Shown here one piece after another: positions 12,612 to 50,567 of a DNA stretch of 64,000 nucleotides (positions are counted from its first letter, which is position 1; the number at the start of each line of letters is the position of its first letter). Source of the DNA: an uncultured Monoglobus sp. (GTDB taxonomy: Bacteria; Bacillota; Clostridia; Monoglobales; Monoglobaceae); contig CANQMT010000009.1 in the NCBI GenBank assembly GCA_947625055.1, positions 12,750 to 76,749 on the forward strand, written 5' to 3'. Under the pieces are notes generated by a model. That model ran no database searches and had not been told where the DNA came from. It saw nothing but the letters and a program-made list of their open reading frames with translations. Position numbers and translations under genes: made by a program.

Positions 12612-12706
12612 TTCGGTTTTTTGAAAAAATGAAAAATGTTTAAAATTTTTCAAAAATTTTTTAAAAAAGGCTTGCATTTTATATAATTATAATATATAAT
12701 ATAAAT

Positions 12707-12855
12707 AATCCTTGCGGAAGGATCAATTTCCGCATCTCCGCTTAGCAGCGCGCGAGGCGGAGAGTTGAGTTTTGTTAATTGCTTTACAGCAATTAAAGTT
12801 TTTCATATAATCCATTCACCTAAGAAAGTAGCGGCGCTTCGGCGCCGCTATTTTC
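12707..12855 (+). ncRNA. Candidate small RNA A (stand-alone, structured, anti-SD/anti-AUG motif)
   Basis: TTGCAT (12672-77)-17-TATAAT (12695-700). Hairpins TGCGGAA/TTCCGCA, TCTCCGC/GCGGAGA and TTAATTGCT/AGCAATTAA. Terminator TAGCGGCGC-TTCG-GCGCCGCTA-TTTT (12829-54). No plus-strand ORF. Confidence 0.7.
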
Positions 12856-12887: not shown

Positions 12888-12916
12888 TTGAAATTTTTAG
12901 CGAATTATGGTATTAT
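12888..12916 (+). promoter_or_regulatory. Promoter of the small-peptide mRNA
   Basis: TTGAAA (12888-93), 17 bp, TATTAT (12911-16), with an extended TGn motif. Confidence 0.75.
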
Positions 12917-13053
12917 ATTTACAGACGCTTTGGCGTTTACACTAAAGGGTATTTTGAGCGGTTAGCCATCTCCTATTTCTTTTTGGAAAGGAGGTGACCT
13001 CCCGATTTTGCCTTGAGTTTTTCTCAAGAGCTTATTGAAAGGAGGGATTGCTA

Positions 13054-13128
13054 ATGCTTAGAACGATTTTAAAAATAATCGTCGCTGTCGTGATATTTTT
13101 CATAATAGTAAGCACAAAAGCAATATGA
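13054..13128 (+). CDS. 24-aa hydrophobic peptide MLRTILKIIVAVVIFFIIVSTKAI, putative type I toxin (absent from the ORF track)
   Basis: Strong SD GAAAGGAGGG (13037-46), a single TM-like core flanked by basic residues, its own promoter and terminator, and a convergent antisense unit. Confidence 0.78.
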   Translation: MLRTILKIIVAVVIFFIIVSTKAI

Positions 13129-13242
13129 CCGCCCCTGAGCTAAAGTAGCGGTCATATTATTGTGACAATTAAAACTTTGGCTAACCGTTTAACGGTTCCC
13201 TTTTGTGCGATTGGGAATCGCTTTTCAGCGATTCCTTTTCGT
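13113..13242 (-). ncRNA. Putative type I antitoxin antisense RNA
   Basis: Consensus minus-strand promoter TTGACA (13277-72)-17-TATAAT (13254-49). Terminator stem AATATGACCGC/GCGGTCATATT (13122-32/13148-58) followed by GCTTTT. It overlaps the peptide stop codon and 3' UTR. Confidence 0.75.
13214..13240 (+). terminator. Terminator of the small-peptide mRNA
   Basis: GGAATCGCT-TTTC-AGCGATTCC-TTTTC. Confidence 0.8.
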
Positions 13243-13326
13243 ATTTATATTATATATTATTTTTTTGCGTTTGTCAAGTGATTTTCTTGTATCAAACATA
13301 GGTATTAGTGATTAGTAACTAGGGAC

Positions 13327-13652
13327 TAGGGCGGGACGTCGAGGGCGCCGTCCCCTACGACCATGGTGCGCAAAACGCCGTAGGCCGTAGGTGCGTCCGG
13401 ATCCGCGGAGCGGGTGCGGGGGCACTTCCGTGTTTCATTTCCACGAATAAACGAGGCCACAAATCATTAACGTGAGCGGACATGGCCGGACGACCTCGGT
13501 CGCCCGAAAGGGGAACCGCGCATACAAGAAACCCCTCTCAGTCGCCTTCGGCGCCAGCTCTCCCCAAGGGGCGAGCCGGGACGCCGGGGTCGTCGTCCCC
13601 TACGACCAAAGTACGCAAAACACCGTAGGTGCGGATATTATCCGCCCGTTTG
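13327..13652. repeat. Cluster of GTAG-type REP-like palindromes
   Basis: GCGGGACGTCGAGGGCGCCGTCCCCTAC, GGGACGCCGGGGTCGTCGTCCCCTAC and GTAGGTGCGGATATTATCCGCCCG. The same units recur at 57.78-58.01 kb. Confidence 0.8.
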
Positions 13653-13674
13653 CATCATCCCTTGATGAATGATT

Positions 13675-14202
13675 TTACTCAATGTCCTTGACTTCGATGA
13701 TCTGGCCCTCGGTGTTTGAGAACTTGCTGAGGGCGTTGAGGGTCTGGCCGGCGCCTATATATCTGTTGTCGTTTGTGTAGTGGCCGAGGCTGTTATACTT
13801 GCCGTCAACCTCGATCGTGACATACGCGTCATATTTATCGGGAACGGTAACAACGACGTATTTACCGTCGGTCTTGCTGATCTCCATTTTCGCGTCCTCG
13901 GCGGAAACGCCTACAACATCGCCGATATATTCCTTGGTCTCGCGGTCATAAACAGGGCCGCCCTTGCGCAGCGCCTCAAGCGTGTATTCTCTGACGCTTT
14001 CGACCTTGTAGACGTATTGGAATTTTGAGTGCTCGGTCGCGGCGCTTGCGTCGCTGTCCGAGGTGTATCTGGCGTAGATGCCGAACGCCAGCGCCGCGAT
14101 GCACAGGACGACCAAAACATCAATAATGCTTATTATGCCGAAAAGCTTGCCGGTCTTTTTGAAATTTCCCTTGCGGGATCCTGATTTATTATTCTGAGCC
14201 AT
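13675..14202 (-). CDS. DUF4330-like membrane-anchored protein
   Basis: GKLFGIISIIDVLVVL N-terminal TM followed by a beta-rich ectodomain. Family assignment is from recall. Confidence 0.65.
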   Translation of the reverse strand: MAQNNKSGSRKGNFKKTGKLFGIISIIDVLVVLCIAALAFGIYARYTSDSDASAATEHSKFQYVYKVESVREYTLEALRKGGPVYDRETKEYIGDVVGVSAEDAKMEISKTDGKYVVVTVPDKYDAYVTIEVDGKYNSLGHYTNDNRYIGAGQTLNALSKFSNTEGQIIEVKDIE

Positions 14203-50411: not shown

Positions 50412-50518
50412 AACCTAAAAGACTAACCGATCCAAAGTTTGCGCTCAAAGGATCGGTTATCTTATTAACTATTCTGCGAAGCGGCTGACCGTTTTTACGC
50501 TCTGCCGTTTCTCTTTGT
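50412..50518 (-). ncRNA. Candidate small RNA C, related to the 13.1-13.2 kb antitoxin-like RNA
   Basis: Consensus TTGACA (50553-48)-17-TATAAT (50530-25). Terminator TAACCGATCC/GGATCGGTTA plus GTCTTTT. Shares AAACGGT(T/C)AGCC with the 13.2-kb RNA. Confidence 0.62.
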
Positions 50519-50567
50519 ATGATTATTATATATTACTTTTTTGTCTTTGTCAAGTATGAATTAATAT

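Follow-up and report, generated by a model that had tools for sequence, protein, structure and literature searches.

The candidate locus is a 390-bp intergenic gap in the 2.2-Mb genome of an uncultured Monoglobus (Clostridia; Monoglobales; Monoglobaceae). In it, a gene that annotation has missed, for a membrane peptide of 24 residues, stands opposite a small-RNA unit. Coordinates refer to the window, by which we mean the whole 64,000-nucleotide stretch of DNA that was analysed. On the plus strand, the promoter elements TTGAAA (12888-93) and TATTAT (12911-16) stand 17 nt apart with 10 of 12 consensus matches. An extended -10 TG (12908-09) precedes the TATTAT, and this promoter is kept in the aligned paralogues and relatives. 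Transcription from it is predicted to start near 12923 and to yield an mRNA of about 320 nt (12923-13247), with a leader of about 131 nt before the peptide reading frame. A Shine-Dalgarno (SD) sequence, GGAGGG (13041-46), lies 7 nt upstream of the ATG at 13054, from which the frame runs to a TGA at 13126-28 (13054-13128) and encodes the hydrophobic 24-residue product MLRTILKIIVAVVIFFIIVSTKAI; the ORF listing program opens the same frame earlier, at a TTG (13048). Two terminator-like structures follow. The proximal one is a hairpin (AACCG-UUUAA-CGGUU, 13183-97) with a T run, which overlaps the 3' arm of the long-distance helix described below, and the distal one (13213-13247) consists of a hairpin at 13213-36, GGGAAUCGCU-UUUC-AGCGAUUCCU, and a U run. 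A first-pass annotation made from the sequence had described a plus-strand unit composed of an extended -10 promoter, a leader of about 130 nt, an ORF and a terminator, and each of these elements was found where it had been placed.

The minus-strand unit begins with a promoter that matches the consensus at all 12 positions (TTGACA at 13277-72, 17 nt, TATAAT at 13254-49). The predicted antisense RNA would start near 13242 and extend to 13108, and is thus about 130 nt long, with both ends predicted from sequence. It is nested entirely within the 3' part of the predicted mRNA and spans the last five or six codons of the peptide gene. These last codons and the stop codon themselves form a perfect 11-bp hairpin (13122-58, pairing 13122-32 with 13148-58). 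Read on the minus strand, this hairpin is followed by GCUUUUGUGCUU and constitutes the predicted intrinsic terminator of the antisense RNA; it could form in the mRNA as well. It is absent from a simple terminator scan because its loop is 15 nt, and the loop of the antisense terminator is large throughout the family, at 9-20 nt across copies.

The perfect minus-strand promoter claimed in the first pass is therefore present, and it is close to consensus in most related loci: 42 of 55 carry a strict TTGACA, 16-18 nt, TATAAT. The remaining 13 have, as judged by eye, a -35 element with one mismatch in most cases and insertions in three, and outright loss of the promoter was seen in none of the 55. 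The terminator proposed over the peptide stop codon is likewise present as a hairpin with GCUUUUGUGCUU, and its pairs covary. Both predicted RNAs fold more stably than shuffled sequences (z = -9.05 for the mRNA at 12923-13247 and z = -7.07 for the antisense RNA at 13242-13108). These z-scores, and the recurrence of the locus with covariation across many genomes, show that its elements exceed chance.

The surrounding intergenic DNA has features of its own. Upstream, on the plus strand, lies a separate candidate small RNA (12672-12855; TTGCAT, 17 nt, TATAAT; terminator at 12829-50), whose -10 and start region repeats 19 nt of the antisense promoter region without a mismatch in inverted orientation (12689-12707 versus 13242-60) and whose core is conserved across Monoglobus at loci that lack the peptide module. 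Downstream, positions 13300-13675 are GC-rich and contain interspersed repeat units such as CGGGACGYCG..GTCCCCTACG, which occurs twice here and is one of a set of units with at least 80 further matches in the 2.2-Mb genome.

Leader structure and the long-distance helix

The mRNA structure has comparative support. In an alignment of 16 full-length mRNAs, 91.2% of cells are paired, against 42-47% in slid controls; 24 pairs are changed on both sides, and none of 500 shuffles reaches the observed values. The 5'-terminal hairpin AGACGC-UUUG-GCGUUU (12923-12938, helix 1) is paired in 100% of cells, with one pair changed on both sides. At the other end of the molecule, the distal terminator (helix 15) is 98% paired and includes many G-U pairs, which are possible on the plus strand only. 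The stop-codon hairpin (helix 12) consists exclusively of Watson-Crick pairs, four of them compensated, which is expected if the structure must form on both strands. In its own alignment, 5 of 10 pairs of this hairpin are compensated, including changes of TGA to TAA and of TGA to TAG that are matched on the opposite arm.

Within the leader, two SD-like repeats of GAAAGGAGG (12981-94 and 13032-45) are paired in the minimum-energy fold with upstream complements (12967-74 and 12998-13002), as the first-pass annotation had suggested from the sequence. The first anti-SD, CAUCUCCU (12967-74), pairs with an upstream SD-like decoy, AGGAGGUG (12989-96), in a helix spanning 12967-12996 that is 94% paired across the alignment (helix 4). 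The second, CCUCC (12998-13002), pairs with the true SD, GGAGG (13041-45), and encloses a leader hairpin at 13010-31; this region (12998-13045) corresponds to helices 5-7, and in helix 7 four pairs are changed on both sides. In the minimum-energy fold the first anti-SD continues directly from the 5' arm of a longer helix that joins the leader to the 3' end of the mRNA.

The first pass had noted a 10-bp pairing between 12959-68 and 13178-87. This pairing is real and is part of a longer, bipartite helix (about 25 bp) between 12940-66 and 13180-207. The 5' arm (12940-12966; helices 2-3, 92-99.5% paired) resembles the central antisense RNA, and the 3' arm (13180-13207) overlaps the local hairpin at 13183-97 and its U tract. 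The extreme 5' end of the mRNA forms a second helix with the U tract, and in several subfamilies the very ends of the molecule are paired, as GCAGAUAAAAGG is with CCUUUUAUCUGC. Among close relatives the long-distance helix varies by wobble-compatible changes only (helix 3, 99.5% paired). Between subfamilies it is rebuilt with compensated arms: CGGUUAGCC pairs with GGCUAACCG in the window copy (C9), CGGUUACGGCC with GGCUGUAACCG in C21, GCGGCACAGCC with GGCUGUGCCGC in C25, ACGGUUGUCAU with AUGACAACCGU in M. pectinilyticus and ACGGUUGGCCGCUUC with GAAGCGGCCAAACCGU in a subfamily whose peptides end in ...SVQ. Across 66 loci, cognate 5'-3' duplexes have a mean energy of -42.4 kcal/mol versus -34.4 kcal/mol for non-cognate ones, and none of 10,000 permutations is as low. 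The leader and the 3' end of the mRNA co-evolve as a long-distance helix.

The local hairpin at the 3' arm also covaries by itself (AACCG/CGGTT to AACTG/CAGTT). Because the 3' arm doubles as the left arm of this covarying hairpin, the long-distance helix and the local hairpin are alternatives. Furthermore, the antisense RNA is exactly complementary to the 3' arm, and the 5' arm of the leader therefore reproduces part of the antisense sequence, though imperfectly. The proposal that the antisense RNA would disrupt the 5'-3' pairing is consistent with these sequences, and there is a precedent in helix P1 of bsrG, which is opened by SR4 (PMC3834814).

Folding in silico with the antisense target blocked makes the initiation region less accessible in 19 of 26 loci (the mean falls from 0.34 to 0.25), a modest effect among sequences that are related and non-independent. 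In the window copy the released 5' arm pairs with the start codon, and this pairing is partly conserved elsewhere, as judged by eye. We reject it as a general feature, as its conservation is partial and the overall effect modest. Activation by 5' processing, of which tisB, dinQ and zorO are examples, was also considered; removal of the 5' arm and the first anti-SD changes accessibility from 0.34 to 0.25, with higher values in only 5 of 25 loci, and this route is not supported. In other words, neither of the in silico states, with the 3' end blocked or with the 5' arm removed, is predicted to open the ribosome-binding site.

Peptide conservation, copies and distribution

The frame is open in 59 distinct copies of 19-28 codons, each with a single hydrophobic stretch, while the two alternative frames contain stops in 59 and in 38 of these 59 ORFs. 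Pairwise differences, counted without the codons that the antisense RNA overlaps, are distributed over codon positions 1, 2 and 3 as 3051:1217:4026, a substitution pattern with a period of three. Of the codons, 64-67% have T at the second position; pN/pS is about 0.5. The peptides follow the pattern M-x-(K/R/N)-x-(I/L)-x-(K/R), about 13 hydrophobic residues and (S/T)-I-K-(A/V)-x. Many type I toxins have charged tails; the C-terminus here (S-T/I-K-A-I) is very short and unlike them. Its terminal K-A codons are doubly constrained because they are also the complement of the U tract of the antisense terminator. Together with the conserved minus-strand promoter and the covarying hairpins, these sequence comparisons speak for a genuine peptide gene that faces a convergent gene for an antisense RNA. 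Two copies from two species (L035, G005:C59, and L038, G014:C26) have ACG in place of the ATG start, and the differences between the two are three synonymous changes and a single non-synonymous one; this ACG could be a weak non-AUG start.

The source genome contains at least 10 full modules and three orphan or truncated antisense units. The C10, C6 and C18 copies are 70-83% identical to the window locus, copies on C21 (MKQLIRIIFLTILFLVLFTIKTV), C25 and C11 are more diverged, and the ...SVQ subfamily is present at two sites on C2 and one on C18. The antisense units without an intact peptide gene lie at C21:45049-45226, at C21:8487-8577 and in the window itself at about 50.4-50.56 kb. The last of these (~50412-50566, minus strand) belongs to the ...SVQ subfamily and retains the promoter, 3' element and hairpin with no opposing peptide ORF. 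At C21:45049-45640, a complete module (MKQLIRIIFLTILFLVLFTIKTV) is followed by a copy reduced to its last codons and the antisense unit.

A covariance-model search for co-occurring peptide and antisense promoter had been proposed in the first pass, and a survey with a covariance model of the 3' module (R1) finds the family widely. It matches 16 of 17 Monoglobus genomes, with 2-12 copies each, and 59 of 151 genomes of the order, with up to 22 copies each; among other Clostridia, 22 genomes have matches at E <= 1e-4, with 1-3 copies each. Inspection of three loci from this last group shows the layout of the window copy again; MKYILRIVMSITIFLVFFSIKAK is an example of their peptides. Among relatives, a genome carries anywhere from 0 to 22 copies. 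In the complete M. pectinilyticus genome, five modules stand in tandem 335-400 bp apart (L046, G012:C1:2361700-2363800), with peptides like MEYVYIIIFMIVFITLIESIKK, and one of the five is without a stop codon. The modules of strain 14T comprise, among others, G012:C1:1273593-1273679, G012:C1:1075229-1075723 and this array, at 2362172-2363735. In a close relative, the syntenic site (L011, G005:C4, 1713-2161) carries an ...SVQ-type cassette (MKYWAVKAAVMLLIIVIVLIAFAPSVQ) between the same promoter-bearing flanks, and by sequence this is a cassette exchanged at a fixed locus.

The neighbouring genes of the loci are ordinary (DUF4330, acyltransferase, phosphoglucomutase, DAHP synthase, MATE pump). 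The family has no match in the phage collection, and its plasmid matches are only M. pectinilyticus replicons labelled 'plasmid'. Because the loci lie between ordinary chromosomal genes and have no phage match, a role in stabilising mobile elements is not evident.

Decay of the module is asymmetric. In about 8 of the 55 related loci, and in copies of the source genome, the peptide gene is truncated, frameshifted or disrupted at the SD while the antisense module still scores highly; the changes seen are 5' truncation, frameshift and replacement of the SD by a repeat element. A repeat of about 140 nt (TAGTGATTAGGGATTAGCGAATAG...) is present in leaders directly 3' of the 5' arm (source genome C18:46725-46863, L016, L032, L033 and L013). 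It occurs in two different subfamilies and replaces the SD or the ORF start in some copies, and could mark a preferred insertion site or a route of silencing.

Proposed mode of action and its alternatives

We think it probable that the locus is one copy of a chromosomal, multi-copy family that resembles type I toxin-antitoxin systems. We infer the two transcripts, the toxicity of the peptide, the antitoxin role of the small RNA, the involvement of RNase III and the refolding of the leader, and propose that they act as follows. The plus strand would give the ~320-nt mRNA for a 24-residue, single-helix membrane peptide, the presumed toxin. This mRNA would be closed by pairing of its leader with its own 3' end in the ~25-bp helix, and closed further by the two anti-SDs, one of them directly after the 5' arm, which would sequester the ribosome-binding site. 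The minus strand would give the ~130-nt presumed antitoxin, fully complementary to the 3' region of the mRNA and terminated by the stop-codon hairpin. By analogy with bsrG/SR4 and txpA/RatA, binding of the antisense RNA would create a long duplex, a likely substrate for RNase III, and lead to decay. Binding would also displace the 5' arm, which shares sequence with the antisense RNA, and the freed leader would then refold and leave the initiation region no more exposed than it was. We infer by this analogy that the leader-displacement logic of bsrG/SR4 applies to the Monoglobus family.

Whether the peptide is toxic is the point on which this explanation and its nearest alternative part. The coding and antisense evidence is silent on toxicity, the loci lie among housekeeping and envelope genes, and the peptide has no long charged tail; all of this would also suit a paralogous family of non-toxic small membrane proteins, such as modulators of a transporter, a sensor or an envelope process, tuned by an ordinary cis-antisense RNA. 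We consider such a family a minority possibility of some weight. It is harder to reconcile with a copy number that is high and variable between close relatives (0-22 per genome), with different subfamily cassettes at the same site in close relatives, and with a heavy translation lock and an antisense promoter of consensus strength. Moreover, orphan antisense units and decayed peptide genes fit selection against an unopposed peptide, and the peptide genes decayed beside intact antisense modules are an indirect hint of toxicity.

The same orphan units (window ~50.4-50.56 kb and C21:45049-45226), and the fact that the antisense module is the best-conserved part of the locus, could instead be taken to mean that the small RNA is the functional unit, acting in trans elsewhere, with the ORF and leader secondary or incidental. 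This is improbable, as several families of Clostridia keep the frame with period-3 substitutions, leader and 3' end have co-evolved, and antisense complementarity to the initiation region is at shuffle level (-50.1 versus -50.9 kcal/mol). More improbable still is that the locus is an intergenic repeat or a mobile element of the MITE or REP kind in which promoter-like and hairpin sequences are present by chance. The family is indeed multi-copy and scattered, and nearby intergenic DNA is rich in interspersed GC-rich repeats, but no terminal inverted repeats or target duplications were noticed in the module alignments, and a true MITE-like element is seen inserting into family loci. A coding signature, compensated RNA helices and promoters conserved on two strands would be unexpected for a passive repeat, and on the coding signature and covariation we reject a passive repeat or MITE.

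Within the toxin-antitoxin-like explanation, three partners may compete for the same stretch of about 30 nt near the 3' end of the mRNA: the right arm of the mRNA terminator hairpin, the 5' leader, which would be an intramolecular copy of the antitoxin, and the antisense RNA. In subfamilies with short leaders, the leader pairs with the left terminator arm and the U tract, and could therefore work as an intrinsic anti-terminator, one that governs how much transcription runs on into the antitoxin promoter. The 3' sites of the C9 and C10 copies are identical over 22 and 27 nt flanking one mismatch. The core of this site is common to the 10-22 paralogues of a genome, and their antisense RNAs, orphans included, would therefore pool as a shared antitoxin. 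We regard the joint reading, in which the contested site, the anti-terminator and the shared pool all hold, as doubtful.

The family has strong comparative support and is invisible to gene callers. It is abundant in the Monoglobaceae, pectin-degrading members of the gut flora, with up to 22 copies per genome, and occurs in other Clostridia. It is relevant to the annotation of small proteins and small RNAs in gut genomes. Its many diverged copies supply natural compensatory-mutation evidence for a leader-displacement design whose experimental proof comes from bsrG/SR4 only. Because M. pectinilyticus is cultured, the predictions are testable.

Comparison with known type I systems

The first pass had supposed that the family might be undescribed, and this stands within the databases and literature searched. 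No Rfam family, txpA/RatA and the other antitoxin RNAs included, reaches its gathering score in the window, and the matches at E values up to 10 are at chance level. Three peptides have no match in Pfam or NCBIfam, the Fst-type and Hok Pfam families included, and exact look-up of eight peptides among 15 billion proteins finds none present. A M. pectinilyticus copy is unannotated in a gene table that is itself incomplete. We found no description in literature on Monoglobus toxin-antitoxins, gut type I families and peptide motifs, and no such family in the T1TAdb paper or the Clostridia review.

The systems hok/Sok (fbi-tac) and aapA1/IsoA1 resemble the proposed design in that pairing between the two ends of the toxin mRNA holds it inactive. 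In these two, the antisense RNA is directed at the 5' or translation-initiation region, and the mRNA becomes active through 3' trimming. The difference is one of position: the antisense RNAs of hok/Sok and aapA/IsoA act at the 5' part of the mRNA, whereas the Monoglobus antisense would target the 3' arm itself.

The layout of the locus is that of the Gram-positive type I systems, as the first pass had recognised, and the SD lies in a helix as in bsrG. A 3'-overlapping antisense RNA and a small membrane peptide are found in txpA/RatA, bsrE/SR5, yonT/SR6 and the C. difficile toxin/RCd modules (PMC6563280, PMC8594479). The Monoglobus family shares this arrangement with the B. subtilis and C. difficile modules, but their toxins are 28-60 aa long with charged C-termini and lie mostly in prophage or prophage-like regions, whereas the Monoglobus loci lie between core genes. 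Fst/RNA II (par of pAD1) and SprA1/SprA1as are also convergent, with overlap at the 3' end and a sequestered SD. Their antitoxins pair with the initiation region through a separate segment (PMC8594479). The Monoglobus antisense differs in having no complementarity to the initiation region beyond that of shuffles, and trans-pairing of the Fst/SprA1 kind was rejected on these grounds (-50.1 kcal/mol against a shuffle mean of -50.9 kcal/mol over the 5' 150 nt of the mRNA).

The closest likeness is to bsrG/SR4 of the SPbeta prophage of B. subtilis. In that system, nt 1-35 of the mRNA pair with nt 232-262 as helix P1, and SR4 pairs with the 3' part (PMC3834814). Upon SR4 binding, nt 1-33 become single-stranded, the SD helix grows from 4 to 8 bp, and RNase III degrades the duplex (PMC3834814). 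In both designs the genes converge, the antisense unit overlaps the 3' end of the mRNA, the antisense RNA is complementary to the 3' arm of a 5'-3' helix, and the SD is held in a helix. This is a likeness of mechanism and not of membership. The Rfam model of bsrG/SR4 (RF01412) scores only 15 bits here (E = 0.77) versus a gathering score of 55. The BsrG peptide has 38 aa versus 23-27 aa in the Monoglobus family, in which the antisense terminator sits on the stop codon and some subfamilies have a second, decoy SD-like element. Finally, bsrG/SR4 is a single prophage copy, whereas the Monoglobus family has 2-22 copies scattered over the chromosomes of Monoglobales and other gut Clostridia. Taken together, the sequence comparisons support a new family of a known kind, one that would work like bsrG/SR4 while standing outside that family.
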